Source: a virus (taxonomy: Duplodnaviria; Heunggongvirae; Uroviricota; Caudoviricetes). Taken from it: a stretch of 64,000 nt of DNA. The position numbers and the translations under genes were made by a program. Below the pieces are notes generated by a model that was not told where the DNA came from, did no database searches, and was given only the letters and a program-made list of their open reading frames with translations. The stretch's first letter is position 1; the number at the start of each line of letters is the position of its first letter. Below, piece by piece: positions 38,964 to 61,047 of this stretch. The stretch lies in IMG/VR virus record IMGVR_UViG_2529292828_000009; one strand, 5' to 3'.

Positions 38964-39236
38964 ATGGCCCTGAAGTGTCCTGAATGTGGCGCGGTCGCTC
39001 ACGCCAGAACCAGCGCCTATGAAGCTCCGTCGGTTAAACGCTCATGGTATCAGTGCCAGAATCTGGAATGTTCCTGCACATTTACCGCACTGGAAAGCGT
39101 GGATACGATAATTATGAAGCCTCGGTGCAATGAACAGGAATCAGACAAAGCAAAAATACCGGAAAAACAACAGCAAACTCTCAATCGCTATGGCTCCGCG
39201 TCAAAGCTGTCAAACCGTCAGCAAATTCCTGTCTGA
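38964..39236 (+). CDS. Ogr/Delta-family zinc-finger late transcription activator
   Basis: MALKCPECG...YQCQNLECSCTF; start at 38964 with AAAAAGGAG upstream. Confidence 0.75.
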   Translation: MALKCPECGAVAHARTSAYEAPSVKRSWYQCQNLECSCTFTALESVDTIIMKPRCNEQESDKAKIPEKQQQTLNRYGSASKLSNRQQIPV

Positions 39237-42859: not shown

Positions 42860-42897
42860 TTAGTAGGGTCTTTGACCCTACTTTAAAATTTTTAAAG

Positions 42898-44169
42898 CTA
42901 GATAGTTTTTTTTGCAAAGTCGTAGGGGGTTATATATTCCTGAGTGTTAGCATCAAGATAATCGGCCCACCACTGAACCATTAAACGACGCTCATCCAAA
43001 TGCTCTGAAGTATGAATATAAGCAGCCCTAACGCTATTACGCTCAGAGTGGCTTAGCTGACGTTCTATCGCGTCATCACTCCACAACCCTGATTCGCCCA
43101 AAGCACCGCGCGCCATAGTTCTGAATCCATGCCCGCAAACTTCGGTTTTTGTGTCATACCCCATTGTGCGCAAAGCACTGTTAACCGTGTTTTCACTCAT
43201 AACTTTAGTTGCGTCATGATCTCCCGGAAACAGTAGCTCTTTATCACCACTAATCTGCTTAAGCTGCTCTAACAAAATCATCGCCTGCCGACTAAGCGGA
43301 ACGATATGCTCCTCTTTCATCTTCATCCCACGGTACGAGTAACGGACACCTTTAATTTCTTCTCGTTTTGCCGGTATACGCCAAAGAGATTTATCGAAGT
43401 CGAATTCATCCCAGCGAGCGAAACGCAACTCACTGGAACGCACAAAAGTTAGTAAGGAAAGCTCGACTGCAATCCGTGTCATTAAACGGCCACGATATGC
43501 AGCAAGACGTGCAAGAAACTCAGGGAAACGGTTAGAGGGTAAAGCTGGATAGTGTCGTGCTTTGGTTGTCGATAAAGCACCAGCCATATCACTGGCTGGG
43601 TTTGAGTCGATATAATCGTTCTGTACGGCATAACGCATAATAGCTGTAACACGCTGCTGAAGACGCTGCGCGACGTCATGCTTACCACTGGCATCAACTT
43701 TTTTAATCGGGGCTAACAGGTGGCTTGTTTTAAGCTGGCGGATATCGGACGATCCGATATGAGGGAAGATATAAAGCTCAAGATAGCGAAGAACGCGCGC
43801 TCTATGGTCTTCACTCCAGCGCTTGTTACTGGCATGCCATTCACGAGCGATCGTTTCGAAAGTATATGCCCCCGATTTCTCGGCCTGAGCCGCTTTCTGC
43901 TCGGCTTTTGGATCAATACCCTGCACTAATAATCTTTTAGCTTCATCACGTTTTGCCCTTGCCTGGGCAAGTGTCACAGTAGGCCAAACGCCAAAAGCGA
44001 GGCGATCCTCTTTTTTGTCTGAAGGGCGTCTGTATTTCATACGCCAGTATTTAGATCCCTTGGCCGAAACCTCAAGATACAAACCGCCACCATCGGCCAT
44101 TTTGTAGGTTTTGTCTTTTGGCTTTGCGGTCTCGACCAGTCTGGCGTTGAGCTTCATTTGGGGGCACAT
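42898..44169 (-). CDS. P4-family tyrosine integrase of the satellite island
   Basis: Homologous to the integrase at 62135-63385 (shared AVMRYAVQN, FVRSSELRFARW, VCGHGFR, RAAYIH); probable start MKLNARL at 44157. Confidence 0.85.
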   Translation of the reverse strand: MCPQMKLNARLVETAKPKDKTYKMADGGGLYLEVSAKGSKYWRMKYRRPSDKKEDRLAFGVWPTVTLAQARAKRDEAKRLLVQGIDPKAEQKAAQAEKSGAYTFETIAREWHASNKRWSEDHRARVLRYLELYIFPHIGSSDIRQLKTSHLLAPIKKVDASGKHDVAQRLQQRVTAIMRYAVQNDYIDSNPASDMAGALSTTKARHYPALPSNRFPEFLARLAAYRGRLMTRIAVELSLLTFVRSSELRFARWDEFDFDKSLWRIPAKREEIKGVRYSYRGMKMKEEHIVPLSRQAMILLEQLKQISGDKELLFPGDHDATKVMSENTVNSALRTMGYDTKTEVCGHGFRTMARGALGESGLWSDDAIERQLSHSERNSVRAAYIHTSEHLDERRLMVQWWADYLDANTQEYITPYDFAKKTI

Positions 44170-44320
44170 TTCTAATCGAAGTCAAGATGCCCCTAATTAT
44201 GCCCCCAATGGCATCCGGATTTCAACGGACAATCTCGGACGACTCCGGACATAAGAATCACTGTACTCATTGAATTATAAGGAACAATTGGACTTTCTCG
44301 GATGATCTTGGAAGTGCTAA

Positions 44321-44344
44321 TGGTGCCGAAGGCCGGACTCGAAC
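44321..44344. repeat. 24-bp direct repeat of the leuX 3-prime end (att junction between the two islands)
   Basis: TGGTGCCGAAGGCCGGACTCGAAC identical to 63575-63598. Confidence 0.85.
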
Positions 44345-44691
44345 ATCGCAACTATCCTTATGATCTTTAGTAATTAAAGCAATCTACATTGTCGATGATA
44401 CCATCATTGATACCATCAGACCCGATTGATGATAATCGAACAGTAATAAAATATGACTAAACAATTTATGCTTCAACATAAGATTGAATGCTTTGATCTA
44501 CCATTTTAATGCAGTGGAAAAATTTTTAACACAATACTTAAGAAAAATAATTTCATATAAAAACTACATTTCATTTCATATAGTTAACACACCAAAAACA
44601 ACTGTATATAAACCCAGTAAAAAATGGTAGAATCACTATTGTGTTCAATTGTTGAACATTTATAATACATTTGTCGGATAGGGGGGTGTTT

Positions 44692-45279
44692 ATGCAAAGG
44701 AACACATACAACAAAGTAGGTCTATACATCCTATCTTTAGCTATGCTTTTTGTTTTTATTATTATCCTGACTGCCAAAATCCCCTTTTGCTTCACTTCGG
44801 ATTGTAGCTTCATAGGTTTGAAGAGACTTGTATTAACAAATATTGTTCCTATTGTTTGCTTTGTATTTTTTCTATTTAGTATTTATTTTTATAATAGATT
44901 AAAAAACATAACAAAATACAATGGACAAGATAGCGTTAAAATAACATCATGTCAAAGCGAAAGCTATGAAAGTTTAACATTCTTAGCAACATACATTGTA
45001 CCTTTTATGGGGTTTAGTTTTGAAGACATGCAAAAGAATATAGCATATCTTTTGCTTGTAGTAGTAATAGGCATTATTTTTATTAAAACAGACAAGTATT
45101 ATGCGAATCCAACTTTAGCTCTGTTTGGCTTTAAACTATACAGGGTAAATATACTACACCCAGGAAGTGGAGAAACAAAAAATCTGATAGCTATTTCAAA
45201 TGATGTATTAAAAGTGGACGATAATGTTTATTATAGTTTCTTTGATGAATTTGTTTTTATAGCAAGGAAAAAAATATGA
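44692..45279 (+). CDS. Four-TM membrane protein, KwaA-like (Kiwa defence system component A)
   Basis: Four hydrophobic helices; ATG at 44692 after a G-rich RBS; 4-nt overlap with the downstream gene; call is by architecture only. Confidence 0.45.
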   Translation: MQRNTYNKVGLYILSLAMLFVFIIILTAKIPFCFTSDCSFIGLKRLVLTNIVPIVCFVFFLFSIYFYNRLKNITKYNGQDSVKITSCQSESYESLTFLATYIVPFMGFSFEDMQKNIAYLLLVVVIGIIFIKTDKYYANPTLALFGFKLYRVNILHPGSGETKNLIAISNDVLKVDDNVYYSFFDEFVFIARKKI

Positions 45280-46223
45280 CTACTCAGCAGTTAAAAGAAA
45301 AAATTTCAAAAATAATTGATAACTTTAGCGGAATCAGGGTTGTATTTACTACTACTGCTAATGAACTAAAGCTTTCCAGAATTGAAGGGAGTGCATTAAA
45401 TAGCATAGCTGAAGGGTTTATTGACAAAATCAAAGAAGACATTATAAATAATGAAGATCTCACCTCACCATTGCTGTCCAATTTTGATGATAGAAAAAAT
45501 GCCTTGTTTAAATTTGATTACGAACAATATCCTGAAGAATTTAACAAAATCACTCAGGCCATCGCTATCCCTCCTAACTCACAAGATTATTATAACCCTT
45601 TAAATAAATTCACAGATGTGAAAGGAATTATAATTTTAATAAGTGGAGATAACAAATGCCTGGCTCTTTATAAAAACAAAACTAACCTTGCAGTATTGAG
45701 AAATAGCAGAAAAATGTTTAATTTAGTCCCTGACCCTGATGGATACTTGAAACAACTCCCTAATGAGATATTACGGTTAGATTTCAATTATGATCTATTA
45801 TCAATTGGTGAGGATTTTTACATTAAAAATCACAAGACTCTTGAAACTCAAATGAAATTTCATCAAGTGATTGAAGCCCAGGCAGTTATTGCTTTAAATT
45901 CTTTACGGGATTCACTACTAATTGAAGACATATCAGGTTTAGAAAAGAGTTCGAGAGAAATTTCATTCGCTAGAAAGTTGGCAAAAATCTCCAAACATTC
46001 TCCTGTTTTGGGGAAAATAGATACTAAAACAATTATCGATTATGTATCCCAACATAAATATTTATCTGCAATACTTCAGATTAATGAAGCAGGAAATAAG
46101 TTATTAATTAAAACCAAGACATCACAGAAGCATTTCATTAAACTCATGAGCGATGATTATTTACAATCAGATCTAACTAAAATAATATACATGAGCATAG
46201 CAAAAGACAGATTAGATGAATAG
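45276..46223 (+). CDS. KwaB-like soluble protein (DUF4868-like, Kiwa component B)
   Basis: 315 aa, coupled to the upstream 4-TM protein; call by size and architecture. Confidence 0.45.
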   Translation: MTTQQLKEKISKIIDNFSGIRVVFTTTANELKLSRIEGSALNSIAEGFIDKIKEDIINNEDLTSPLLSNFDDRKNALFKFDYEQYPEEFNKITQAIAIPPNSQDYYNPLNKFTDVKGIIILISGDNKCLALYKNKTNLAVLRNSRKMFNLVPDPDGYLKQLPNEILRLDFNYDLLSIGEDFYIKNHKTLETQMKFHQVIEAQAVIALNSLRDSLLIEDISGLEKSSREISFARKLAKISKHSPVLGKIDTKTIIDYVSQHKYLSAILQINEAGNKLLIKTKTSQKHFIKLMSDDYLQSDLTKIIYMSIAKDRLDE

Positions 46224-46237
46224 AATTTTAAGTAGAA

Positions 46238-46278
46238 GTGACAAATATTATAAACCATTCTTGAAATATATTTGTCAC
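46238..46278. terminator. Bidirectional hairpin between convergent genes
   Basis: 11-bp perfect inverted repeat GTGACAAATAT (46238-46248) / ATATTTGTCAC (46268-46278). Confidence 0.5.
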
Positions 46279-46287
46279 TATTACTAA

Positions 46288-46959
46288 TCATTCGCGTGCT
46301 TGATTATTTATGCTGGATGTTCTAATTGTTGCCGAATGCCAATACCCACCACTATATGTTCTTGCTATAGTAATAAATCCAGTACAGGTAATTACTGTCA
46401 TTAAAATCAGGAAAATATAATAGAAATTAAGCGGAGCTTTCAAATCAAAAGGAGGTAACGAATACACCAGCAACCCTATCCATACAATAGTTATAAATAA
46501 ACTAATAATTTGGTTTATCTTAGATACTGATATTGGAGATGGACCAGTAAGTAAATGAACCGAAAACTCTTTTATTCCTTTCGGTTTTGCACGAGATAAC
46601 ACCACTTTATATAGTGGACCATTAATATTATCTTCTAACATATCGACATGTTTTTCCCAGTTTCCCTGCCAATATTTACTACCACGGTTAACACAGAGCC
46701 AACCGAATGAAAATACAATTCCCAGTGAACACAGTAATACGGATAAATCTGTCTTAGCTGTAGAAGAGGAAGTCTGTATAGCAACAAAACCAGCTAAAGT
46801 TGCCGCTATAAAAGTCCAGAAATAAGTTGCTCTTTTCCAGTAATGGTCTATCTCATATTTCCGTATATCTAAAGCCTGTAGCAGAGCATTCTTATTACAG
46901 TCTCTATCATTAAGAAAACGGCTACGATATTCCTCATCTGAAAATGGAGTAATTGGCAT
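46288..46959 (-). CDS. Orphan multi-TM membrane protein with a SLATT-like N-terminal arrangement
   Basis: Charged helix, then TM pair (YFWTFIAATLAGFVAI ... LSVLLCSLGIVFSFGWLCV), then two further C-terminal TM helices; no match recognised. Confidence 0.5.
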   Translation of the reverse strand: MPITPFSDEEYRSRFLNDRDCNKNALLQALDIRKYEIDHYWKRATYFWTFIAATLAGFVAIQTSSSTAKTDLSVLLCSLGIVFSFGWLCVNRGSKYWQGNWEKHVDMLEDNINGPLYKVVLSRAKPKGIKEFSVHLLTGPSPISVSKINQIISLFITIVWIGLLVYSLPPFDLKAPLNFYYIFLILMTVITCTGFITIARTYSGGYWHSATIRTSSINNQARE

Positions 46960-46985
46960 ATTGATTTACCTCTATTTATAATAGT

Positions 46986-47013
46986 AAAAGAGGGGTCCCC
47001 CCCCCTCTTTTTT
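46986..47013 (-). terminator. Rho-independent terminator at the 3-prime end of the RM gene
   Basis: AAAAGAGGGG (46986-46995) / CCCCTCTTTT (47002-47011) stem with flanking T-run. Confidence 0.55.
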
Positions 47014-50000
47014 AGTTATTTTTAAACAAAACCTTTACTATTCCATCTATATCCCTTAGGAAACTCTCGAAAGAGGATCTATTAGCCTTAGCTTCATGAG
47101 CCTTTTTTGAAAGTTCAGACAGCTCACGATGCTTTTTATTACCTTCATCATAAAGAGGAACATTAATTGGAGGTCTGATTTTAAAAGTTCTGCTATCACT
47201 GGACTTCAGAATGTACTCCCCAGTGATTGATGAGTTAAAAATAGCACAAATGTAATGTGCCTCATCCAGGGTAATAAATTTACCATCTTGCCTCTGAGAT
47301 ATACTCACAGCATGGTTCTGAAATAAAGGTCTCTTTTTGTCACCCCATGGAGTATCCATTTGACTCACAACTGCTGCTGCCCATTTAGTGTTATCACGAA
47401 AACAAACAAAATGATCACCATAAGTATATTCACCTACACGAGCCAATGCGTAAAATGCAGTAATATTGCTTTTACCTATGATTTTGTCATTGTATCGAGT
47501 CTGCGACTCTAATAACTGTTTATTATTAATGAAATAGTCAGCCAACATAGGGCTTTCTTTAACAAGCTCATCTACAGGTATCGGTTTACGACTCAATTCT
47601 CTATATGGAAAGGGTACGAAGAACTCAACATCTTTTACCCCAAAAGGTTCAATATTTGTTCCTTTAATCAGGGGGTATATATGCTTGGTTTCAGCAAAAA
47701 TCATTTGTTTTGCCACTTTATACTTAGACTTGCCACCCTGATAATTTTCAAAAATTGCAGTGTTGTTAGCTTTTTTTGTCTTAAATTTCCATAAGAATAA
47801 TTCTTGAGGGAAAAATTCAATCCCTTCCCTGCCATGATATTCGCAATATCCACTGATATTTCTGTAATCATTGAGTTTTTCGGAATCTGAAGCATATGTA
47901 AAGGCTGTATTGCTTACACTAACAGTGCCAGCGATCTCTTTACGGATAGAGAACTCATGCGAAATAGCATTAAAATGCGTATGCTGTGAGTAGCTATCAA
48001 GGCTTCTTCCGGTTTTATTTTTCGTCAAAAATGTTAAAGGTATCCCTTTTAAATAATCGACATTTTTTGACGAGAATAAATAAGTCGCAAACTTGATTGT
48101 AACAGGCTTGAATGGATGCCCGGATTCACTCCAGTCGTATACCTCTTGGAGATATAGTTTTTGGTTATCCCCAAAGTTAAACTCTCGAAATCCTTCATAT
48201 GTTTGCTGGAAAAGGATATTTTGAGGCATAAGGAATGCCAATATGCCATCTTTCTCTAACCAGTTTTCAGCAGATACATTAGAAATTAATGCACAAATGT
48301 TAAGGTTTATACCACCAGTAAGCCTATCACCAGAAAATAGGCTCCTACTTAAGCATAAGCCTTTAATTCGTTCTCGATATCCTGCAGGTAAATTTTTCCA
48401 GTCAATCCATGGTGGATTACCAACAACCATATTAAATTTGCCTAAGTTTGCAGTGGTCAAAAAATTAGTGACTATTCTAGCCCAAATTCCATTCCAGTCT
48501 CTTTCTTCTAGTTCGACAAACTTATCTGATAAAGTTTTTAATTTTTCATAAATGCTAGGAGAACTACTAATATCCCCACTTACTTCGATTAATTTTGCAA
48601 AAACACTATCACGATCTCGAAGTTTAATATATCGTTCAATATCAACAATTGCTTTTGAGAACTTATGAGAATCACTCAAAGCTTGAGTAGGCATCTCGAT
48701 ATAAATCGAGCCTTGCAAAGTATTTATTTCGTATCGCAAACAGTCAATGCCATCAATTATGACCTTTTCTGGAACATACGATGCGTCACCAAGATAAATT
48801 GGAATTTCAACTTCGCTACCTTCATCAAGCAAATGTGATATATTGATGAAATAGTTGATTCTTGCAGTTAAAGCTGCAAGAGGATTTAAATCAATACCTT
48901 TGACAGATGTTATGACATCTTTTAATTTAGCTTTGCTATCAGTATGAGTACGACTCAGAACTTTACCTATTAATGTAATTATAAAGGTTCCGCTACCACA
49001 ACATGGATCAATTGCAGTCCAGTTGTTCTTATTTACAACATGCTCTTCAGCAGAGGATATCAAATGCTCTGCAAGCCATTCAGGAGTGTAAAATTCTCCA
49101 AGAGAATGTCTTACTTTATCAGGAATAATGTTCATGTATAGATCTTTGAAAAGATCGTATACTTTTTCACCCTCTTTGAAAAGGTTTCCTTCCTCATATT
49201 CACTTAGTAATGAAAATATATTTTTAATACTAATGAATATATCATCTCCCCATTGTTCCTTAGTACAATACCAAGAGAAAAAGTCACCTTCCAGCAGGTT
49301 CAAAATCCCATACTTCCTGAAAATAGCACCTTCTTCTAATGTGTATAAATAGTTTCTCATTGATTCAGAGTTACTATTGATCATATCTGAAAAATTATAA
49401 TCATTTTCAAATACAAGTCCAGATAATGTTTTATAAGCTATTATTTTTACAATAATCGCATATGCAGTCTGGAGAGCATAAAGAACTTTATATTCATCAT
49501 CGTTAGTAAGTAACCTATGACCAGCAATATCTTCAAGTGATAACTTTCGTTCTAAAATTGCTGTTTGCTGAGATTTATCATCATGTGCAAGTCTAAATAG
49601 CTCCTTCCATTCGTTGAAGAGCATTTGAGAGCGGCCCGTCATGTTATTTTCAAGAGCCGAAAGAAGATTACCTATTAATTGAGTTGTTAAAGATGGAGAT
49701 CCATAGCAAAAATCATCAACGATGTTTTTTGGATGCAATGCCTTCTTATTCAAAAGAACTAAAAGCCCGCAAATTTTTTTAATTGCATTCTTATCAAGCG
49801 GTTGCAACTTTGATGTTAAAATGCCATCAGTATCACGAATAAGGTAATTAATACCGTCTGTTAGCACTCCAACATAGCGTTGATTCCCTTCTAACTTTAA
49901 AGAATCAAGGTAAGCCTGGATTTGAAGCACAGCCTTATTAATATCATTATCTTTTTTTAATTTCTCTCTATGCTTAAACTCTATTACTAAAGATCCAATA

Positions 50001-50290
50001 CGACTATCGATACGCCCCTTACTGTTGCTTCTGCCGGTCGTGTTGTATTTAATACCATCAATAAAAATTTCTTTTTCGGGACGGTAATCAATACCAATGA
50101 AATCTTTAATGAAAGGAATAAAAGCAAGGTCGAAACCAGAAACAACTTCTGCTTCATTTTTGGCTAAATATGAGGACTCATTAATTTTTTTAGATATAAT
50201 ATCAGCAGCTAAAAGAAAATCTGAGTCAGTAACAATCTTTTCTTGAGCTTTGAACTTAATTTTTTTTTGAATTTCTTCTAACACAGCCAT
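47012..50290 (-). CDS. Type IIG restriction-modification enzyme, MmeI-like (PD-ExK nuclease + N6-adenine methyltransferase + target recognition)
   Basis: N-terminal IDSRIGSLVIEFK (D...ExK), SAM motif DPCCGSGTF, catalytic VGNPPW; 1092 aa in one polypeptide. Confidence 0.65.
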   Translation of the reverse strand: MAVLEEIQKKIKFKAQEKIVTDSDFLLAADIISKKINESSYLAKNEAEVVSGFDLAFIPFIKDFIGIDYRPEKEIFIDGIKYNTTGRSNSKGRIDSRIGSLVIEFKHREKLKKDNDINKAVLQIQAYLDSLKLEGNQRYVGVLTDGINYLIRDTDGILTSKLQPLDKNAIKKICGLLVLLNKKALHPKNIVDDFCYGSPSLTTQLIGNLLSALENNMTGRSQMLFNEWKELFRLAHDDKSQQTAILERKLSLEDIAGHRLLTNDDEYKVLYALQTAYAIIVKIIAYKTLSGLVFENDYNFSDMINSNSESMRNYLYTLEEGAIFRKYGILNLLEGDFFSWYCTKEQWGDDIFISIKNIFSLLSEYEEGNLFKEGEKVYDLFKDLYMNIIPDKVRHSLGEFYTPEWLAEHLISSAEEHVVNKNNWTAIDPCCGSGTFIITLIGKVLSRTHTDSKAKLKDVITSVKGIDLNPLAALTARINYFINISHLLDEGSEVEIPIYLGDASYVPEKVIIDGIDCLRYEINTLQGSIYIEMPTQALSDSHKFSKAIVDIERYIKLRDRDSVFAKLIEVSGDISSSPSIYEKLKTLSDKFVELEERDWNGIWARIVTNFLTTANLGKFNMVVGNPPWIDWKNLPAGYRERIKGLCLSRSLFSGDRLTGGINLNICALISNVSAENWLEKDGILAFLMPQNILFQQTYEGFREFNFGDNQKLYLQEVYDWSESGHPFKPVTIKFATYLFSSKNVDYLKGIPLTFLTKNKTGRSLDSYSQHTHFNAISHEFSIRKEIAGTVSVSNTAFTYASDSEKLNDYRNISGYCEYHGREGIEFFPQELFLWKFKTKKANNTAIFENYQGGKSKYKVAKQMIFAETKHIYPLIKGTNIEPFGVKDVEFFVPFPYRELSRKPIPVDELVKESPMLADYFINNKQLLESQTRYNDKIIGKSNITAFYALARVGEYTYGDHFVCFRDNTKWAAAVVSQMDTPWGDKKRPLFQNHAVSISQRQDGKFITLDEAHYICAIFNSSITGEYILKSSDSRTFKIRPPINVPLYDEGNKKHRELSELSKKAHEAKANRSSFESFLRDIDGIVKVLFKNN

Positions 50291-50835
50291 CGTTACATCT
50301 CTATGTTACATAGCAAATTTCTTATAATTTTACCACATTTCAATAAATATTTCATCATGTTTGTTTGGTATTATCCATACACTTGAGAAAAGTTAATTTC
50401 ACAATTAAGCAAGGGCTAACTCTCCGAAGCTCCGCTTCTTATAGTTCCCCTTGATTTTCTTTCTTTCAGTCAGAAAATACAGACATTTCATCATGAAAAT
50501 TGATAATTTATTTTTAGTATTAAAGTATTATCTCACCTTATCGCCGAACCGATTTGAGATTTAGTGCAACTATAAGTATAGTTCCCCTGACAAATAGCTT
50601 TCTTATTTAAGTAACGGTTAAACGATAGGGCCTCACTACTGGTGCCAATCATGCCATACTCTCAAATGCTACCCCTGCAGACAGGGCTCTACTACCGTAA
50701 AGCTGGCATAAAGTATTATAGTTACCTCTCTTAAAAGGAATTTCTAACTCATGTACCAGATCTACATGAGTTCTACATCCCCCTGATGAACTTAGCAGTG
50801 ATAGCTAACCGATACTGAAGTGTACTGCTGAGTGA

Positions 50836-50887
50836 TTTGACAAATAGAAAATATTAAGCTATAACAGTTGTATCCTACAGGATACAA
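50836..50887 (+). promoter_or_regulatory. Sigma70-like promoter (TTGACA-17 bp-TATAAC) followed by a perfect palindromic operator
   Basis: TTGACA 50836-50841, TATAAC 50859-50864, palindrome GTTGTATCCTACAGGATACAAC 50866-50887. Confidence 0.55.
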
Positions 50888-50899
50888 CATGAGAGCATT

Positions 50900-51157
50900 A
50901 TGCCAGAAATAGATAGGCAGGGAGGTTTGGCTTTCTACATGTACTTTTTCGATACGGGAAAACATCATGTTCCTCATGTACATGTAAAATTTGGCGAATA
51001 TGAATTGGTTTTAAGTATAGCGGATGCCCAAGAACTCGCAGGATACTTACCCGATAAATGGAGAAATAAAGCAAGAAAACATGTATTAACAAATAAACAG
51101 AAACTTAAGAAAATGTGGGTTCTCGCCGTGAATGGAAAACAGCCAGGAACTATCTGA
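50900..51157 (+). CDS. DUF4160-family protein
   Basis: MPEIDRQGGLAFYMYFFDTGKHHVPHVHV N-terminal signature. Confidence 0.6.
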   Translation: MPEIDRQGGLAFYMYFFDTGKHHVPHVHVKFGEYELVLSIADAQELAGYLPDKWRNKARKHVLTNKQKLKKMWVLAVNGKQPGTI

Positions 51158-51170
51158 AGAGGAGAGATTT

Positions 51171-51671
51171 ATGAGCAGAATTATAGACTTAGATATTATT
51201 GATGATTTTACTTTGCAGTTAACCTATGAAAGTGGTTTGTCTGGAAAATTTAACTTCTTTAAATATCGTGATTGCGAAGTTTTTAATAATCCTAAAAAAT
51301 TCCAGAAATTTGCTTTGCTACCTACTGGTGATCTCGAATGGTTAGGGGGCGAACGAGTTACTTCCTTAGAACTGTTAGATAAACTTGTTAATATAAGCTC
51401 TACTGAAAAGAGTAATATTTCAGGCACCACCGACATACTCATGATGGCGTTTCAAGATGCTGTTCGTGAAAATAGACCACAGATTATTCAGGCAGCTTTG
51501 CGAGCTATGCTTGATAAGCATGGTGTAGCAAATGTTGCAAATATGACAAATGGAAGTAGAACAAGTATTTATAAGTCCCTAAGCGAAAATACTAATGTAT
51601 CTATGTCTACTGTTATTAACCTTGCTCATAGTGTTATGGAAATTGAGAAAAAAGAAAAAGAAATATATTAA
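51171..51671 (+). CDS. DUF2442-like domain fused to a C-terminal HTH (antidote-like) domain
   Basis: MSRIIDLDIIDDFTLQLTYESG start after an AGGAGAG RBS; C-terminal LRAMLDKHGVANVANMTNGSRTSIYKSL HTH. Confidence 0.5.
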   Translation: MSRIIDLDIIDDFTLQLTYESGLSGKFNFFKYRDCEVFNNPKKFQKFALLPTGDLEWLGGERVTSLELLDKLVNISSTEKSNISGTTDILMMAFQDAVRENRPQIIQAALRAMLDKHGVANVANMTNGSRTSIYKSLSENTNVSMSTVINLAHSVMEIEKKEKEIY

Positions 51672-52013
51672 TCCCCCATTTTAAGAACGAGGATTGTACA
51701 CCCACCTGATTCAATAGCATTCTCTTAATTCGTTTATATGCCCTTGTCCTCATGATAGAATTGAGTACAGAATAGCTTCTCCAAAAAGGAAAATAATGCG
51801 GATAATTATAGCATTTTTAATTTATTCCCTGCGAGTTAAATACCTTTACTATTATAAGATAAAAACCCAAGCATTAGCATAACTTCATTTCATACATCAC
51901 ATCCCCTCACATTTTCTTCATTACATGTTGACATGAAATAAATTTACTTATAATTATATAATATCAATAAGTAATATAGGGCATTTTAACACACACATAT
52001 AAAAGGAGTTTAT

Positions 52014-52418
52014 ATGGAAGATATAAAAAACAAAGAAGACATTTCACCATCTACAGAAGTCAGGCTCTTCACCCCCACCATGAAAAAAACTTCTAAAGTG
52101 CATCCCAACGAGCGGAGATTACACTGTGTCAGTGTCCGATTAAATAAAAAAGAGTTAGAGAAGATTGAAGAACTCAGGGGTCGTTACCGTAGGGGAGAAT
52201 GGCTGCGTATGGTGTCGTTAAGCAAACTTCCTCCATTGATCCCAGAGATAAACAAGGATGTCTGGATCATGTTGGGGGAAATATCGCAGAAACTTAATCG
52301 TCTGATAGTACATCTGGATTCTAAAACCAGTGACAGCCCTCTGACTAAGACAGAAGCTTATGCAGTCAAAAAACAACTTCATGAGCTTCGTTTAAGCCTG
52401 ATAACTTCTCGTCCATAA
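52014..52418 (+). CDS. MobC-like relaxosome accessory protein
   Basis: 134 aa basic protein immediately upstream of the relaxase; RRLHCVSVRLNKKELEKIEELR. Confidence 0.5.
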   Translation: MEDIKNKEDISPSTEVRLFTPTMKKTSKVHPNERRLHCVSVRLNKKELEKIEELRGRYRRGEWLRMVSLSKLPPLIPEINKDVWIMLGEISQKLNRLIVHLDSKTSDSPLTKTEAYAVKKQLHELRLSLITSRP

Positions 52419-52430
52419 AAATTTCTAATT

Positions 52431-53621
<1,191 letters not shown>

Positions 53622-53845
53622 ACAGCTAGTTGTAAACACCTTTCGTAACCTAACTCAATTGCTTAGTAATAAATTTGTGTTTAGTCAAGAAAATATTGAT
53701 CGTTATTACAGATCGATAATCTAGTTATGATAGACAATAACTATCAAGTAACAATCATCGATCGGTACAAGCAATTTTACTAAAGCGAGTCGGTCATCGA
53801 GAATCTCTGTAAACGCACCATTTAATCTGCAACCCTGGGGTTGAT

Positions 53846-54118
53846 ATGAAAGACGAAACAATAAAGTGCCCGTTCTGCTTTACACAAAGTCCTCATGGTG
53901 TGCGGATTTGCAAAGGGTGTCATGCAAAGGTTGCTTACGGTGAAAGCCCGCTCAGTGTGGCATTCCTGTTTCAATTCGTGGCATTTGGTCTCGCGTGGTT
54001 AGCATTTTCGTGGACCGACAGCACTCTTGTATCAGTCATTACGTTTTTCGTAAGCATCATTATTCTTATCTATAAAATCAAAAGAATGTATGCAGACAGA
54101 GTTGTTTTTATACGGTGA
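53846..54118 (+). CDS. Small membrane protein: N-terminal zinc ribbon + two TM helices
   Basis: CPFC...CKGC followed by two hydrophobic helices. Confidence 0.45.
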   Translation: MKDETIKCPFCFTQSPHGVRICKGCHAKVAYGESPLSVAFLFQFVAFGLAWLAFSWTDSTLVSVITFFVSIIILIYKIKRMYADRVVFIR

Positions 54119-54159
54119 AATTAATTTCACACAATCGCAAACATAAAATGAGAAAGTAA

Positions 54160-54546
54160 ATGAACCGATTTATAACGTCCTCTTTTTTTATTATTGTCTT
54201 CCTGCTTTCTGGCTGTTCAACATCAGGGAACCAGAACCTTAAAAACGAAACACCACAAAGCCTCCAGTCAAAGATCATTAAAAACAAAACAACTAAGACG
54301 GAATTACTCTCTAAGTTAGGTGAGCCTGATACAAGAACCACACTCGATGACGGAAATGAGCAGTGGAAATATTTCATGACTAACAATCAGTTCAGTGCAA
54401 CGACTTTCATTCCAGTTGTGGGGCTGTTTACTGGCGGTTCCCAAACTCAGTCTAAAACTCTTGAAATCGACTTCAAGGGAGAGACTGTAAGTAAATGGAC
54501 TTTTTCCTCTGACAATAACAACACCAAAACTGGAATTCTTAATTAA
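54160..54546 (+). CDS. Predicted lipoprotein
   Basis: Signal peptide with lipobox LLSGC. Confidence 0.5.
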   Translation: MNRFITSSFFIIVFLLSGCSTSGNQNLKNETPQSLQSKIIKNKTTKTELLSKLGEPDTRTTLDDGNEQWKYFMTNNQFSATTFIPVVGLFTGGSQTQSKTLEIDFKGETVSKWTFSSDNNNTKTGILN

Positions 54547-54553
54547 TTGTTTT

Positions 54554-54880
54554 TTGGATAAGAAAATGAAAATATACTCAATTATCACAGTTATCATTAC
54601 CACCTTCCTTCTAACCGCATGTAACAATGAACCATCGCAAGACGATATATACAATGTTTTCAAAAGTGTTGTAGATAGAACAAATACAAGTATGAAAGCT
54701 CTTGATTCAAGAGTTACAGAAAAAGATCTTTTAAGAATCGATTACGTGAAGAAAGTTAGTTGCACAGAAGAAGCAAACAATGTTTATAACTGCATTGTCG
54801 ATGCCTCTATTAGTAATATGAAACAAACAAAACCAGTAAAACTAATCAAATCTGATGGTGTCTGGAAAGAAGTTCAGTAG
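54554..54880 (+). CDS. Predicted lipoprotein
   Basis: Signal peptide with lipobox LLTAC. Confidence 0.5.
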   Translation: MDKKMKIYSIITVIITTFLLTACNNEPSQDDIYNVFKSVVDRTNTSMKALDSRVTEKDLLRIDYVKKVSCTEEANNVYNCIVDASISNMKQTKPVKLIKSDGVWKEVQ

Positions 54881-54930
54881 TAGCCTATATCAAGAAGTCT
54901 TTTAGCCCCTGCACAGGGGCTTTTTATTGC

Positions 54931-55365
54931 CTATAACCTGACGGTTCTTACGCGAACGTCATAGGTTAACTCTTTCTCAATTACTTTCATTTCATATTGT
55001 GCTTTGACAGTAGCAGAGATTTCTTCTGCTTTTTCTTGATTATTATCGATGTAATTAACAAGCGAGTTTAGCTCCCTGATAACAGCATCCTTATTGTTTA
55101 ATCTTTGTAGTAGATTGCTTGTAAGACTTTTGTATACCGAGCTAAACATAGTCATTATGTTATCAATATTACGATTGGATTTGGAATAAATCCTTTCAGG
55201 GTAGAAATACTTCAAATGGTATCCCACAAAAATTAAGTAAAGCTGGTATGAGAAACTTTTATCACCTGGCTGGTATCGTTTTGAGATATATTTATCGACG
55301 ATAATGATAAGTTGCTCTTCCAGAGTAAACTCTGGATAGATAATGTTTTTGTCCATAAAATGCAT
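54931..55365 (-). CDS. Hypothetical protein
   Basis: 144 aa ORF, AT-rich codon usage, no motif recognised. Confidence 0.35.
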   Translation of the reverse strand: MHFMDKNIIYPEFTLEEQLIIIVDKYISKRYQPGDKSFSYQLYLIFVGYHLKYFYPERIYSKSNRNIDNIMTMFSSVYKSLTSNLLQRLNNKDAVIRELNSLVNYIDNNQEKAEEISATVKAQYEMKVIEKELTYDVRVRTVRL

Positions 55366-55452
55366 CCTTGCATTAGTTAAATAGTCTTCCTGACCATATA
55401 TTTATATTTATCGCATTTATTAAACTTGTCAATAGGTGTAACCTATCAAATA

Positions 55453-55839
55453 TTATTTTTTATTAAATGGCCTATTCAACTGTTCCATAGTAAGACCGTG
55501 TCTATAAGCATTATACTGCCAATAGCTAAATTGCTCTTTGTATCTATTGTTCTGTTTTTTCAACATTTCGTTTTCGGCTTTAAGGTTTATTATTTGTTGT
55601 GCCGCAATAGTTAAGTTAGCTGGTTTCTTTAGACCAGATTTTTTCAAATTGGACAAACTTTTCTTTATTCTATATGCTTCAACAACTTCATCATGAGCAC
55701 TTAAAGATTGCCTTGTGATAGTTCTGTTTAGATTCTTATACACTGATTCACATAAATCACTCCATGTGATTTTACCGTCCCAAGTCAGTATAATGTGTTT
55801 AATTGCTTTTATTTCACTCCTGTTCAAATGTTTTGCCAT
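55453..55839 (-). CDS. Small basic protein downstream of the recombinase array (TnpC-like by size and position)
   Basis: 128 aa, 14 bp after the 624-aa recombinase gene. Confidence 0.4.
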   Translation of the reverse strand: MAKHLNRSEIKAIKHIILTWDGKITWSDLCESVYKNLNRTITRQSLSAHDEVVEAYRIKKSLSNLKKSGLKKPANLTIAAQQIINLKAENEMLKKQNNRYKEQFSYWQYNAYRHGLTMEQLNRPFNKK

Positions 55840-55853
55840 AAGTATCTCCTGTT

Positions 55854-57728
55854 TTAATTATTCAAAAGCTTATTAATTCTTTCCAAATTTTTTTCATGGT
55901 GTTGCAACCATTTGTCTGCACCATAATCACCATTTTCATAAGCGATCTGAGTTATTCTCTTTAATTGCATTACTTTCTCTCGGACAGATTGCAGTCTAAT
56001 TCTATCTACTGAGTTAATGTCCGGTGTTTCATTATCACATTCAATAAGATGATTAATTTTTGCACAAGGCTTGATTAAATAGTTATGTACACAGTAACCA
56101 AATTCAGTTAAGTGTATTGCACCTTGATTAAGGTTATCAAAATCAATTGTCAGTTCATTTGTGGGTATTGACTCCCTTTGACAGTAATTACTCCTATTCA
56201 ATTTAATAGCTTTGATTTTATCTAACATATCTTCTTCCGACACATGGTTATAAACTCTGTTCTGATTCGCATTGATACGACCAGACCATTTAGCTATATC
56301 CAGTTCAGACATTTCACCATAATGGGCTATTGTGTTTAAAAGGTGCCGTGGCTGGTGTGAGCGAATAAGTAGTGGTTTACCTTCATCATCATAATATCCA
56401 TATCGGGAAAATATATTTTTATAATTCATCTCATAGCTTTTTTTTCTTTGTATGTCACTGAAAAAGAAACTTTTAGTAGGCTTATAAAATGTGAAAATTG
56501 AAGTCATTCTTGATAAAGAAAATTGATCAGTATTGAGCAAGCATAAAGCATTACTAAATTTTATGGATTTTTCTTTATCATACCATGGAAAGTCTCTGCT
56601 AAAATTAGAACTAATAATTTCCCACAAATCACTCAATGAATAGTTGTAATCATTGTGGTTTAAGAAGCTTTTCCCACCATCCAAACTCGTTCTTTTAATT
56701 TTTAAAACACATGATTTATGATCAAATAAATGATATCCCAGTGCATGGCAAACTTGTACAACGGTCAATTTAGCTTTTTCATCAACTGTTGGGCAAAGCT
56801 CATGTCGGTAAAATTTATCCGGGTACTTTTCGCACCAGTGAGCAAGTGCTCTTGCATTTTGTGATAAGGAAAGTAATCTTCTAATCGCTTTCTTTGCAAC
56901 TGGTATCATAACCCGTGGAATCCATTTGATATTAGGGCCATACCCTTTTACCGAATAAAATCTCAAACCATATCTTTCGATACCCTTGCCATCTATTTGT
57001 GTAATCTCACAATCAGCAGGTAAGGCTAAAATTTCAGAAATTCTGCTCGGACAACAAAGTAGAAGTGCAAATACTGAACTGGTGAACTTATCCCTTGGAC
57101 TCAGTAACTCATCATTTTGAGAAAAAATATCAGCAATAGCGAGCAATGCTTCTTCATCTGGTAACTTATCGCTTCGGTGATAATCCTCAATCTCAGGAAG
57201 ATAATTGTTTTTGACTTTCTGTTTTACATGGTTTTTCCATGAGATATATCCTGACTTCACAAGATTATGTTCACACAGAAACTTTGATATTTTTTCAAGC
57301 TGTATTCCACATTTAGCCAAAACGTTACCTTCAAAATATTTACTCCCGATCTGCATTGCCTCATCGAAAACAACGGCTGTAACATTATAAATGAGACCAG
57401 TGTTCTGAACCTGCAAAAGGGCCTGTTCGAGACATCGCAAGGCCATCATAATAACCCCATAATTTTTCAATGGTTTCAATGTGTGTTGATATCTGATATA
57501 TGCTTTCGCAAAATTGATATAATCTTCGTGCATTGCATCAATGGAATCAAAGATTTTATTTCCAATCCCTATTTTTCTAAATGTGACATATCCTTTCCAG
57601 GCATACTGCTCCCAATCCTGAGTTTGGGTTAGTCCGGACAGTTGATAGCGACAAAATTTTATGAACTCATTATAATTTTCTTCTACAAGAATATGTTTTT
57701 TTGATTTGAACAAAATAATATTATTCAT
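55854..57728 (-). CDS. Tyrosine recombinase-like protein, third of three (624 aa)
   Basis: C-terminal SHQPRHLLNT ... NQNRVYNHV pattern; ATGA overlap with upstream gene. Confidence 0.5.
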   Translation of the reverse strand: MNNIILFKSKKHILVEENYNEFIKFCRYQLSGLTQTQDWEQYAWKGYVTFRKIGIGNKIFDSIDAMHEDYINFAKAYIRYQHTLKPLKNYGVIMMALRCLEQALLQVQNTGLIYNVTAVVFDEAMQIGSKYFEGNVLAKCGIQLEKISKFLCEHNLVKSGYISWKNHVKQKVKNNYLPEIEDYHRSDKLPDEEALLAIADIFSQNDELLSPRDKFTSSVFALLLCCPSRISEILALPADCEITQIDGKGIERYGLRFYSVKGYGPNIKWIPRVMIPVAKKAIRRLLSLSQNARALAHWCEKYPDKFYRHELCPTVDEKAKLTVVQVCHALGYHLFDHKSCVLKIKRTSLDGGKSFLNHNDYNYSLSDLWEIISSNFSRDFPWYDKEKSIKFSNALCLLNTDQFSLSRMTSIFTFYKPTKSFFFSDIQRKKSYEMNYKNIFSRYGYYDDEGKPLLIRSHQPRHLLNTIAHYGEMSELDIAKWSGRINANQNRVYNHVSEEDMLDKIKAIKLNRSNYCQRESIPTNELTIDFDNLNQGAIHLTEFGYCVHNYLIKPCAKINHLIECDNETPDINSVDRIRLQSVREKVMQLKRITQIAYENGDYGADKWLQHHEKNLERINKLLNN

Positions 57729-59029
57729 AGTTGATTCACCTCACTGCGATCAATCGGAATAAAAAACATACATTGATTGCAAGGAAATCCTGAATTCTGA
57801 CTCTGGCATCTACTTGAAGAAAAAAATTTGAAATGACTACTCTTTTTCGATTTGATTCCGTTCATAAAAATATCAGCGACAAATGACAATTGTTCTGAAA
57901 CAGCGGAATCAATCCTTTCAACACTGTCAGCATGATTTTTAATATAAATCCCCGCACTTGAAGTAGATGAATGATCCAATAATTCAGCTATAGTATTAAC
58001 ATTATGCCCATTCTTAGCCAGCATAGTTGCTATTGTATAACGAAGCCTACGAGGAGTAATATTTAGTATCGAACCGGTACGGTTGGATATTACATTCCCA
58101 TTATTAACAATACTTTTCAATGCTACATTAGCAATTGTAGGCTTCGCATATAATTTATTATATTCCAGAAGAATTGAACCTGTTATGGATAAATCTGAGA
58201 GTTTTTCCTCATTTAAGAAAATAGGAACTTCTCGTTTAGAATAATCATCAAGAGTTTTTCCAAGAGCTTGTTCAACAAGTTTCACTGATTGATTAGCTTG
58301 CAATTGAACAATTGATGCAACCTCTGATATTATTGCAAGTTCTCGATATCGTAGTTCTTTACCCCGTTGTTTTACTCGTGGCACTGAAATTACATATTCT
58401 ACTTTGCCATTATCTAAGTTCTTTTGAAGAAGGTCTTTATATTTCAACATAACTAACTGCTGAGGTCTTCTACCTGTAAGACTGATCAATAGTGATATTG
58501 CATAATGTGGCAGTGACAGTTCACCTTTTCTATATGCATGATTCATAGCCTTAATCAAAGAAGTATGTTCTTCTTTATTTAATGGTCCCTCTGTTGGATC
58601 ATCTTGAAGCACAGACTGACCAGATTTTTTTATTTTTAGGTCCAAATGCTTTAACAGTTCTACCGCACTTTCATCTATTCCCGGATATCCTAACTCAAAC
58701 CATTTAATCAAAAATGGTCGTAAAACGCGAAATGATGCTGGGGCTTTTGATAATTTCTTATTTTGATATTCAATTAGAACCTTATCATCAATATGAGTAG
58801 GAGATAGTTTACGGATAAGACTCTCCATATTTCTAACAATATTTTTCACATACAAATAGCTGTTGCTATTAAAATAATATTGTACTGTATATACAAACCC
58901 ACAAACCAAATTTTCGTTCATAGCATATATTAAGTTTGTAAGATTGATTCCGTTATTTTCAATCGAACTGACGACTTTATGTTCATGCAAAGACATTTTA
59001 TCAGATTTATTTTTAATTAAATTATTCAT
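57725..59029 (-). CDS. Tyrosine recombinase, second of three
   Basis: LTGRRPQQL ... RRLRYTIATMLAKNGHNVNTIAELLDHSSTSSAGIYIKN; start MNNLIKNK overlapping upstream stop by 8 nt. Confidence 0.6.
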   Translation of the reverse strand: MNNLIKNKSDKMSLHEHKVVSSIENNGINLTNLIYAMNENLVCGFVYTVQYYFNSNSYLYVKNIVRNMESLIRKLSPTHIDDKVLIEYQNKKLSKAPASFRVLRPFLIKWFELGYPGIDESAVELLKHLDLKIKKSGQSVLQDDPTEGPLNKEEHTSLIKAMNHAYRKGELSLPHYAISLLISLTGRRPQQLVMLKYKDLLQKNLDNGKVEYVISVPRVKQRGKELRYRELAIISEVASIVQLQANQSVKLVEQALGKTLDDYSKREVPIFLNEEKLSDLSITGSILLEYNKLYAKPTIANVALKSIVNNGNVISNRTGSILNITPRRLRYTIATMLAKNGHNVNTIAELLDHSSTSSAGIYIKNHADSVERIDSAVSEQLSFVADIFMNGIKSKKSSHFKFFSSSRCQSQNSGFPCNQCMFFIPIDRSEVNQL

Positions 59030-60224
59030 CAAATTCTCCTTTGAATAGTTGCTCTTGTTGTTCAAGTGCAGTTTTTTTCGATAGCTCATAAATATGCCTG
59101 CGATTATAAATCATTGAAGTTTCTGAACCCGGTCGCCATCCCATGAGATAAGAACGGATTTGTTGCTCTTTTTCATCGGATATGTCCTGATTCTTGTCTA
59201 TTGCTTTCGAAAACTCATAATTCCATGTATGTCTGAGTTTGTGACCTGTCAATCCCCCTAGAAGTGAGGAGGATTGACGAACAACACTCACCACTTTGTG
59301 ATATGAAGAAAATGAAATAGGTTGCCCTTGAGTTTTTCCTTCCTTATAAGTAATAAACAGGAAATCATGTTTGTTAGAATTTTTTATGTTTCTTCGATCA
59401 TTCAGAATATAATCTGAAATTTCAAACATGAGCTTTTTATCAGCAATTAATTTCCTCTCACAAGTTTTAACTAAAGGCTGATACACTCGCGGATCTGTTT
59501 TATCATTTGCTCTTCTTCTTATTGCAATTGTCGATTCTGCAAAATCTATATCACCAATTCGCAGATTCAAAAGTTCACCTGCTCTCAGGCCAAAGCAGTG
59601 TAATAGCAGGAATATTAGATTGTTTCTTTTTTGCACTTTTTCTGAAAAAGGATTTAATTTGCTACCCGGTGCAAGAATGCTAAACAAAGAATCCAATTGT
59701 TCATTATTTAAACTTTTTTCTATATCCATATTATATTTATCATTATTTCTCGGTTTCTTTCGTTTTATGTTGTTAATGAAATCTAAAATATATTTGAGAG
59801 TATCCTTCTGTCCTGTATGAGAAAGATGTATTTTGCACAGCCATTCCAGATAGTTAGCTATGGTTGTTATCCGAAAGTACTTAGTTGGTTTTTTGACATT
59901 TGAACTTCTAAAATTATCATTCTCGCCATCTCGAAAATTGAATGAAGTGAATTCGATCAAATCTTCAATTTCATGAGGAGCCAGAAATATCCTTTTCTGA
60001 ATTCTTTCATCAATATTGATCTCTTTCCTCATAAAGAATCGATATAACAATGAAATGCTACCGGCAATAACCTTCATTGTTGATATAGACTCTGACCGAT
60101 TCCTGACCTGTGTTGTTATATACAAGTTAGGATAATACAATGGTTCACCAGTATTTTTATTTACGATATGACAATATCTCTCACCATTTTCGAACATAAA
60201 AGAATCCACACAAATACTACGCAT
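59022..60224 (-). CDS. Tyrosine recombinase, first of three
   Basis: GLRAGELLNLRIGDID ... GHKLRHTWNYEFS ... MIY catalytic-domain pattern. Confidence 0.6.
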   Translation of the reverse strand: MRSICVDSFMFENGERYCHIVNKNTGEPLYYPNLYITTQVRNRSESISTMKVIAGSISLLYRFFMRKEINIDERIQKRIFLAPHEIEDLIEFTSFNFRDGENDNFRSSNVKKPTKYFRITTIANYLEWLCKIHLSHTGQKDTLKYILDFINNIKRKKPRNNDKYNMDIEKSLNNEQLDSLFSILAPGSKLNPFSEKVQKRNNLIFLLLHCFGLRAGELLNLRIGDIDFAESTIAIRRRANDKTDPRVYQPLVKTCERKLIADKKLMFEISDYILNDRRNIKNSNKHDFLFITYKEGKTQGQPISFSSYHKVVSVVRQSSSLLGGLTGHKLRHTWNYEFSKAIDKNQDISDEKEQQIRSYLMGWRPGSETSMIYNRRHIYELSKKTALEQQEQLFKGEFDE

Positions 60225-60519
60225 ATTTTCCTCCTAAACTTTACAAAAAGTATAATTCCAATATATTAATAATAAGCATTTCGTAGATTTACAAATTTAT
60301 TTGAATTGATTAAGCCATTTAGTTAAATTAAAACAGTGAGATAGATGTTTATTCCTGTCAAATTATCATCTGGTAGATCTAGTTATTATTATGTACACCT
60401 AATACCTCGAAAACTATCTCACTGCCTTGCTAATAAACGATCATAAAAATAATGTAAGTTATTCTGTAAAGTTTTAAGCAAAAATATACAGCCAAACTTT
60501 ACATTTTCATAAATATTTA

Positions 60520-60819
60520 TTAATCCAACAGATATAGAATTATCCGCTTCGCCAAGAGTTTCATTTCATCAGGGCATTTAATTAGCGAGAACCAGGTCTC
60601 GTAAACATATATCTGTTTGGAAGCATTAAGCTCAGAGATCGAGTCTAAAGGTTCTCTCAAATTTCCTACAAGGTACTGACTGAGCCAGTAAATTATTTCT
60701 TTATTAAACTCGTTATTGGGTAAGTCATAAATCACTTCTTGGTCAAAGATCTTGTAAAACCGATCTCCGCATAAATTGCACATATGGTTATCCTCACTCA
60801 CAAATTCTTCGATATTCAT
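60520..60819 (-). CDS. Hypothetical protein
   Basis: 99 aa ORF downstream of the AlpA-like gene. Confidence 0.35.
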   Translation of the reverse strand: MNIEEFVSEDNHMCNLCGDRFYKIFDQEVIYDLPNNEFNKEIIYWLSQYLVGNLREPLDSISELNASKQIYVYETWFSLIKCPDEMKLLAKRIILYLLD

Positions 60820-60840
60820 AAAAATCTCTCCCAGGTTTAA

Positions 60841-61047
60841 TTAAGCAACATTAATTCTGCTTGATTCGATAACTGATTGAATCCACTCGTCAACTTCACT
60901 CTCGACAAAAGCAACGGCACGAACACCGATCTTAACGGGGGCCGGAAACCGACCTTCACTGATCAGACGATAAATCCAGGCCTTGCCGAAACCAGTTCGT
61001 TTCAAGACTTCTGGTAAACGAATTAAGCTTTGATTAGTTGTACTCAT
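60841..61047 (-). CDS. AlpA-family regulator / excisionase-like
   Basis: LIRLPEVLKRTGFGKAWIYRLISEGRFPAPVKIG HTH. Confidence 0.7.
   Translation of the reverse strand: MSTTNQSLIRLPEVLKRTGFGKAWIYRLISEGRFPAPVKIGVRAVAFVESEVDEWIQSVIESSRINVA

Follow-up and report, generated by a model that had tools for sequence, protein, structure and literature searches.

The segment at positions 50836-51671 of IMG/VR virus record IMGVR_UViG_2529292828_000009 raised the question of what is served by a promoter, a perfect palindrome, and two closely spaced genes that directly follow one another. The whole stretch analysed, 64,000 nucleotides (nt) of DNA assigned to Caudoviricetes, is referred to below as the window. 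An earlier note, made from the letters alone, had suggested a toxin-antitoxin-like or abortive-infection module of unusual construction. In this study, the two proteins were compared with curated families and relatives, the palindrome with the upstream regions of the relatives, and the surroundings with other copies of the locus. The locus is very probably an autoregulated type II toxin-antitoxin operon of the DhiT/DhiA family, carried on a 19.3-kb mobilizable enterobacterial island. Judged by its sequence, the module is a divergent copy of the DhiT/DhiA system, which has already been named and tested (PMC8198452), so the novelty implied by the first reading was lost. The features of the locus, with genes and proteins given in amino acids (aa), were as follows.

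50837-50842, + strand: -35 hexamer TTGACA, perfect consensus, read from the letters and unchanged in 8 other island copies
50860-50865, + strand: -10 hexamer TATAAC, 17 nt past the -35, read from the letters
50867-50888, strandless: putative operator, a perfect 10-2-10 palindrome GTTGTATCCT-AC-AGGATACAAC, predicted binding site of a dimer of the DhiA-like helix-turn-helix (HTH) domain
50891-50895, + strand: Shine-Dalgarno-like GAGAG, 4 nt 5′ of the dhiT ATG, read from the letters
50900-51157, + strand: dhiT-like toxin gene, 85 aa, DUF4160, from Pfam, NCBIfam, and NCBI naming
51159-51164, + strand: Shine-Dalgarno GAGGAG, 6 nt 5′ of the antitoxin ATG (51171), read from the letters
51171-51671, + strand: dhiA-like antitoxin/repressor gene, 166 aa, from homologue alignment and NCBI records

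The two genes and their relatives

The two genes were found to be closely spaced, as had been claimed, with a gap of 13 nt in which the GAGGAG is located. The product of the first gene, previously recognized as a DUF4160 protein, matched Pfam DUF4160 (PF13711) with an E value of 2.4e-14 and 53.7 bits, well above the gathering threshold of 23. It also passed the NCBIfam model toxin_DhiT (NF048015), with 107.7 bits against a cut-off of 100 over model positions 1-83 of 84. An identical 85-aa sequence has already been named toxin DhiT in NCBI, where over 116 contigs of Klebsiella variicola and other Enterobacteriaceae carry it; identity to the DhiT of Dickeya was 45%. The residues that are invariant in the DhiT family, D18, H22, P25, H26, and H28, were all present, and their Asp-His-His-His cluster points to a metal-dependent enzyme, perhaps a nuclease. 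The AlphaFold2 (AF2) model of the protein had a pLDDT (predicted local distance difference test) of 89.5, and the structural search with the toxin gave no confident structural homologue. Sequence search of the PDB gave nothing significant for either protein of the pair, and comparison of the toxin with isolated phage genomes and with plasmids gave no match and only two weak matches, respectively.

The listing of open reading frames gave the second gene as a 179-aa form that starts from 51132 and overlaps the first gene. Homologues all align from residue 1 of a 166-aa form, the NCBI records likewise use 166 aa, and the gene is best read as extending from 51171 to 51671. The 166-aa protein aligned end to end with the NCBIfam model for antitoxin DhiA (NF048016; positions 1-160 of 160; E value, 1e-38), scored 133.3 bits against the equivalog cut-off of 200, and was 44% identical to Dickeya DhiA over 165 aa. 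By these alignments, it is a DhiA homologue located outside the equivalog threshold. Identical proteins in NCBI, from Klebsiella, Salmonella, and Enterobacter, are designated only as "DNA-binding protein," "HTH transcriptional regulator," or "addiction module antitoxin."

The antitoxin was divided into an N-terminal beta domain (residues 1-77, DUF2442-like), a flexible linker (79-84), and a C-terminal HTH domain (86-165), the last being modelled by AF2 as a five-helix, HigA-like fold. A fusion of this kind, with a DUF2442-like N-terminus and an antidote-type HTH at the C-terminus, had been proposed in the earlier note, and each half of the proposal held in part. The HTH was detected, at scores under the curated cut-offs: the C-terminal domain (residues 94-155, approximately) scored 23.4 bits against PF21716 (5.5e-5; cut-off, 27) and 31.8 bits against TIGR02684 (1.2e-7; cut-off, 53.7). 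By these scores, the domain is related to the HigA/HI1420-type antidote family and is not a member by the curated thresholds. For the N-terminal domain, Pfam DUF2442 (PF10387) gave no match to the window antitoxin at an E value of 0.1 or better, but 9 of 10 aligned full-length homologues matched this model (best, 6.5e-10). The top structural match of the antitoxin was 2AUW, which we take to be the structural representative of DUF2442. By transitive homology and predicted fold, the N-terminal domain is a divergent member of DUF2442.

When 1.84 billion representative proteins were scanned exhaustively with HMMER, the antitoxin gave only 19 matches, approximately 10 of which were full-length two-domain proteins (160-175 aa), with a best identity of 47%. 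All of the 10 aligned homologues matched both the DhiA model and PF21716 (HI1420). As the two-domain form was present in 10 of 10 homologues, the DUF2442-HTH fusion is the norm of the family and no oddity. It is the defining architecture of DhiA, seen also in Dickeya DhiA and in 2AUW, and the description of the fusion to a DNA-binding domain as unusual had to be withdrawn.

Searches with the single antitoxin sequence gave only near-identical copies when word-indexed and no relative in the genome scan. Nothing was returned when the plasmid collection was searched, as DNA and as protein, with the region and the antitoxin, or when complete E. coli genomes were searched at the DNA level. The relatives described here came from the search of representatives and from an alignment-based scan with one genome per species. 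The latter gave 68 loci, most of them in marine Gammaproteobacteria, including Halomonas/Vreelandella, Marinomonas, Aliivibrio, Photobacterium, Rheinheimera, Shewanella, and Vibrio cholerae. At almost all of the 68 loci, an 85-aa DhiT homologue was located directly upstream of the antitoxin gene, and the toxin-first order with a gap of approximately 8-10 nt was observed in nearly all. The closest relative (locus L093) had a toxin 55% identical and an antitoxin 47% identical to those of the window. Many relatives are lone chromosomal pairs amid housekeeping genes, such as the Dickeya pair in the hyc region.

Three of the relatives differ in other respects. The DhiT homologue of Marinomonas sp. 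UCMA 3892 (L018, 2237-2491) has an in-frame stop, and that of Vreelandella boliviensis (L015, 2252-2492) is split by a frameshift; with the antitoxin gene intact in both, these are decaying toxins next to retained antitoxins. In Edwardsiella tarda (L082, AFJJ01000028.1), a DhiTA homologue with a toxin 54% identical to that of the window is located in a lambdoid prophage, adjoining genes for AntA, YbcO, DUF1367, and DnaB, and is preceded by the operator TTGTCTCCT-at-GGGAGACAG at the standard position of the family (see below). The DhiTA family therefore also rides on prophages.

The operator and its position in this clade

The near-consensus promoter described in the earlier note, TTGACA-17-TATAAC, was present at 50837-50865. 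A promoter match of 11/12 is expected approximately 1.2 times per 19.3 kb on both strands, and the probability of one such match within 60 nt upstream of a given ATG is approximately 0.002. The last position of the -10 is not the conserved T, and for this reason the promoter was omitted by a stock promoter scanner. The GC-TATA at the -10 of the window agrees with the tGC-TATAGT of the relatives; the distance from the -10 to the ATG is 34 nt in the window versus 29 nt in most relatives, and the ribosome-binding site of the relatives, AGAGG or GAGGG, occupies the same place as the GAGAG of the window.

The palindrome begins one base past the end of TATAAC. It is a perfect 10-2-10 palindrome, as previously noticed, and its position was corrected from 50866-50887, which is one base low, to 50867-50888. 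It would cover approximately -6 to +17 relative to the predicted transcription start. The palindrome was single-copy in the 64-kb window with 3 mismatches allowed, and was found in none of 100 shuffles.

A family motif, TTGTMTCYT-N2-ARGAKACAA, was defined in this analysis and was not taken from the literature; it shares the half-site and the 10-2-10 spacing with the window palindrome. All 53 distinct upstream regions of the relatives matched the motif at 15 or more of 18 positions, and approximately one site per locus was present in the relatives (70 sites in 388 kb). The consensus of the 53 distinct sequences was TTGTCTCTTTTAAGATACGG, followed by tGC-TATAGT, with T1-T4, T6, C7, G14, A15, A17, and C18 of the motif being invariant or nearly so. 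The window palindrome matched at 18 of 18 positions, no other site in the 64 kb reached 15, and the core GTMTC-N6-GAKAC occurred once. In the Enterobacterales, the half-site TTGTATCC of the Dickeya solani-type and D. zeae loci and of the closest relative is the same as that of the window. The 100-bp promoter fragment of Dickeya, which is repressed by approximately 50% by DhiA and more by the complex (PMC8198452), contains TTGTATCCTttGGGATACAG, with half-sites as in the window; the operator and the HTH domain are both unmentioned in that report. A second operator was sought across the 64-kb window, including the mobC promoter, and none was found; the repressor therefore appears to be dedicated to its own operon.

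When read as RNA, the segment 50866-50905, which contains the palindrome, gives a 9-bp hairpin of -13 kcal/mol (z, -3.7), six nt 5′ of the GAGAG, and a hairpin in the 5′ leader might stabilize the mRNA or modulate translation of the toxin. A leader long enough to hold the whole palindrome could arise from a promoter-like sequence, TTGAGA-17-TATAGT, at 50554-50582, upstream of the dhiT promoter. A transcript from the adjacent promoter, by contrast, would begin within the left arm. Among the 53 relatives, the central arm position is non-complementary (C opposite T) in 30, and pairing at the outer arm positions is possible in only 11-16. Together with the invariance of specific bases, this is the pattern of a recognized DNA sequence and not of an RNA stem. 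The motif also precedes the -10 in the relatives and is thus untranscribed, and scans of 50200-52100 for Rfam families and tandem repeats were empty or trivial. A role of the palindrome as RNA is highly improbable on these grounds.

The operator is placed differently in the window and in the rest of the family. In all of the relatives, the -35 (TTGTCT or TTGTAT) and the spacer are formed by the motif itself; 3 nt separate it from an extended -10, and the end of the palindrome is 23-40 nt (usually 38) from the ATG. This last distance is 12 nt (11 nt for the full 22-nt palindrome) in the window and in the copies nearly identical to it, so that the operator is located after the -10 and over the predicted transcription start, and a consensus TTGACA takes the -35 role. 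This clade alone has the operator past the -10, and its -10 is at the distance from the ATG that is usual in the family. The island copies agree in both promoter hexamers and in the 8-2-8 core of the palindrome; variation is confined to the outermost two bases of its left arm. The relocation would uncouple promoter strength from the operator sequence, and the palindrome could in this way have become perfectly symmetrical. The relocation in this clade appears to be undescribed; together with the family-wide definition of the operator, it is what goes beyond the searchable literature.

A one-residue deletion (51546-51560, residues ~126-130) is found in the antitoxin of the same clade, the one with the relocated, perfectly symmetrical operator. 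A nearly invariant Lys is lost from the turn just before the recognition helix, and the turn and helix start read MTN-GSRTS in the window clade versus AGIKSRTS in all other members. DhiA relatives have a conserved recognition helix, KSRTSxY[KR]SL. Covariation of this helix with GTATC or GTCTC half-sites was considered and rejected, as identical helices accompany all three operator variants.

Approximately 430 nt of non-coding DNA (50405-50836) are present upstream of the dhiT promoter and are kept with the island backbone even where the cargo differs (L086). This DNA has no Rfam match and contains a short recurring motif, TTATAGTTCCC, at 50439, 50576, and 50716, that is, every ~138 nt; alignment of the three segments gave no real unit, and the motif was rejected as a repeat unit. 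The sequence TTGACAAATAGAAAATATTA (50837-50856) was considered as a decayed ancestral operator, which was not demonstrated: it scores 11/18, a value reached by 0.7% of positions, it matches at 5 of the 10 invariant core positions, and several of the matches stem from its being a -35.

From homology, architecture, operator conservation, and genomic position, we infer an operon that would work as follows. Transcription from the promoter TTGACA-17-TATAAC would cover both genes, beginning with that of the toxin. The toxin, the 85-aa DUF4160 protein, would inhibit growth, and the 166-aa protein would neutralize it through direct binding by the DUF2442-like N-terminal domain. A dimer of the HigA-like HTH domain would bind the 10-2-10 palindrome over the transcription start and repress the operon; by analogy with Dickeya, the toxin-antitoxin complex may repress more tightly than the antitoxin alone. 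The suggestion of the earlier note that the pair is a toxin-antitoxin module with an autoregulatory operator is thus well matched by the passed DhiT cut-off, the full-length alignment to DhiA, and the presence of the operator motif upstream of every relative examined, and it agrees with the toxicity, rescue, and promoter repression shown for the Dickeya pair and the toxicity and rescue shown for the Bacteroides copy.

The island that carries the pair

A tRNA-Leu(CAA) gene is located at 63575-63659 (- strand), and a 25-bp direct repeat of its 3′ end, ATGGTGCCGAAGGCCGGACTCGAAC, is present at 63574-63598 and 44320-44344. The repeat bounds an island of 19.3 kb with 33-34% GC, while the host has approximately 55% GC, and homology to other copies stops on the left at 44315-44327, in agreement with the repeat at 44320-44344. 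The island contains a P4-type integrase gene (62135-63385, next to the tRNA gene), genes for a MobC-like protein and a MobA/VirD2 relaxase, and the dhiTA-like pair; its cargo consists of a type IIG restriction-modification system (2e-156), an 8xMP protein, and Kiwa (KwaA/KwaB). From the pair to the right (window ~50405-61000), eight other island copies showed 94-99.5% identity. To the left of the dhiT promoter (44345-50405), the cargo is exchangeable between islands otherwise 96-99% identical: one copy (L086) has a Schlafen/AlbA_2-HATPase protein and an N6/N4 methylase, with homology to the window beginning at 50405, and in another (L090) a type I restriction-modification system replaces Kiwa. 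As the pair is kept while the cargo differs, the dhiTA-like pair is part of the island backbone and borders a hotspot of cargo exchange.

The most likely biological role of the pair is retention of the island, in that cells losing the island would lose the labile antitoxin; this addiction role is less certain than the molecular mechanism. Several observations would also suit the same module acting as an abortive-infection or anti-phage device of the defence cargo, with infection depleting the antitoxin or shutting off the operon and the toxin arresting the cell. Its neighbours are bona fide defence systems (the type IIG restriction-modification system and KwaA/KwaB, with SIR2-HerA further left), DUF4160 serves as an effector domain of the Menshen anti-phage system, and homologues occur in prophages of Edwardsiella tarda (L082) and Bacteroides (Wilby 1). 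However, PADLOC-DB 2.0 searched at an E value of 0.001 or better had no model for either the toxin or the antitoxin, whereas the neighbours matched strongly. The module also stays with the mobilization and recombinase backbone while the cargo is exchanged, as in L086, and many relatives are the lone chromosomal pairs among housekeeping genes mentioned above. The abortive-infection function named in the earlier note thus received no direct support, the pair being in the backbone rather than in the defence cargo, and a defence role is considered unlikely.

The dhiTA-like genes are followed at once, in the same orientation, by mobC and the relaxase gene, and no terminator was detected between the pair and these genes. 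Such an arrangement would suit a pair that is not, or is no longer, a toxin-antitoxin system, with the 166-aa protein regulating island functions and the 85-aa protein being a harmless partner or co-regulator. The score of the antitoxin under the DhiA cut-off and the lack of effect of the Thermus pair in E. coli are in line with this. But the sole operator-like site in 64 kb is at the promoter of the pair itself and none is at mobC, all invariant toxin residues are kept in a toxin identical on more than 116 contigs, and three independent homologues (Dickeya, Bacteroides, and Thermus) are toxic and rescued by the partner. A purely regulatory pair is therefore very unlikely, and the toxin-antitoxin operon is retained as the explanation.

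A broader statement, put forward only tentatively, is that the operator was relocated with promoter strength uncoupled from the operator sequence, that the module may anchor the island or trigger abortive infection, and that the toxin is a metal-dependent enzyme of a fold without a characterized relative.

Other features of the island and the window were also observed. The region 55854-60224 (- strand) encodes two tyrosine recombinases next to each other (400 and 454 aa) and, after them, a 624-aa protein without a Pfam match. They are kept in every island copy, with an AlpA-like gene accompanying them in relatives, and constitute an uncharacterized recombination module additional to the P4-type integrase. 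The relaxase gene (52431-53621) has a run of Ala-Pro dipeptides at 53230-53334; as the length of the relaxase differs among island copies (383-409 aa), this run is probably a linker of variable length. A second island is located in tandem at ~32690-44319, with a 15-bp partial copy of the att sequence described above at 32690-32704, a P4-like primase (33056-35440), Psu (37626-38411), a SIR2-HerA defence pair (39843-42859), and a P4-type integrase (42898-44169); it looks like a P4-like satellite with a defence hotspot. The non-island part of the window contains a Mu-type transposase gene (16689-18689; DDE_2 at 2e-136) and a gene for a chaperone-usher fimbrial usher (20128-22764).

Comparison with known systems

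The overall importance of the locus is modest, as it is an ordinary addition to the DhiT/DhiA family. An experimentally grounded name is nevertheless obtained for a gene pair that is widespread in islands of Klebsiella, Salmonella, and Enterobacter and whose antitoxin has so far carried only the name of a generic DNA-binding protein. The literature on DhiTA gains a testable operator, TTGTMTCYT-N2-ARGAKACAA, an assignment of the DNA-binding domain of DhiA, and two naturally occurring placements of one repressor's operator that can be compared. The module is placed at the boundary between backbone and cargo of a defence-carrying mobilizable island, and this member, which is native to E. coli-like hosts, would lend itself well to a search for the target of DUF4160 toxins.

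The defining DhiTA pair is that of Dickeya dadantii 3937, in which a DUF4160 toxin gene precedes a DUF2442 antitoxin gene; its DhiT inhibits the growth of E. coli and Dickeya, co-expression of DhiA abolishes the inhibition, and the pair did not stabilize a mini-F plasmid (PMC8198452). The window pair is similar in having an 85-aa DUF4160 toxin followed by a DUF2442-plus-HTH antitoxin of ~170 aa (171 aa in Dickeya DhiA), in its identical operator half-sites (TTGTATCC...GGATACA), and in the invariant toxin residues common to both. It differs in that identity is only 45% for the toxin and 44% for the antitoxin, the latter being below the DhiA cut-off. Its operator follows the -10 over the transcription start, whereas the Dickeya operator forms the -35 and spacer; its antitoxin has the one-residue deletion before the recognition helix; and its carrier is a mobilizable island, in contrast to the fixed chromosomal position of the Dickeya copy in the hyc region. 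A further member was reported from the Bacteroides prophage Wilby 1, in which DhiT is toxic and is rescued by its partner (bioRxiv 10.64898/2026.06.25.734096).

The DUF4160/DUF2442 pair on a plasmid of Thermus thermophilus, whose second open reading frame is needed to tolerate the first, raised the persistence of the plasmid and had no effect in E. coli (PMC12724237). Like the window pair, this persistence-enhancing module is toxin-first and is carried on a mobile element; its antitoxin is a single-domain DUF2442 protein of 92 aa without an HTH, whereas the window antitoxin has one. NE0471 of Nitrosomonas europaea, of uncharacterized function, whose crystal structure dates from 2005 (2AUW), shares the same two-domain fold with the window antitoxin at ~10% identity, with no match at the sequence level.

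The antitoxin resembles HigA/HI1420-type antidotes (PF21716 and TIGR02684) in its predicted dimeric HTH on a palindromic operator, with a match in all 10 homologues. Unlike HigA-type proteins, its HTH is fused to a DUF2442 domain that would bind the toxin, and its partner is a DUF4160 toxin and not one of the RelE/HigB type. DUF4160 is also an effector domain of the Menshen NsnC anti-phage proteins, for which no confident structural homologue was reported (PMC12065111). NsnC shares this Pfam domain with the window toxin and the domain is regarded there as a toxic effector; in Menshen it is fused into a larger defence protein, whereas in the window it stands alone as an 85-aa protein with a cognate antitoxin.

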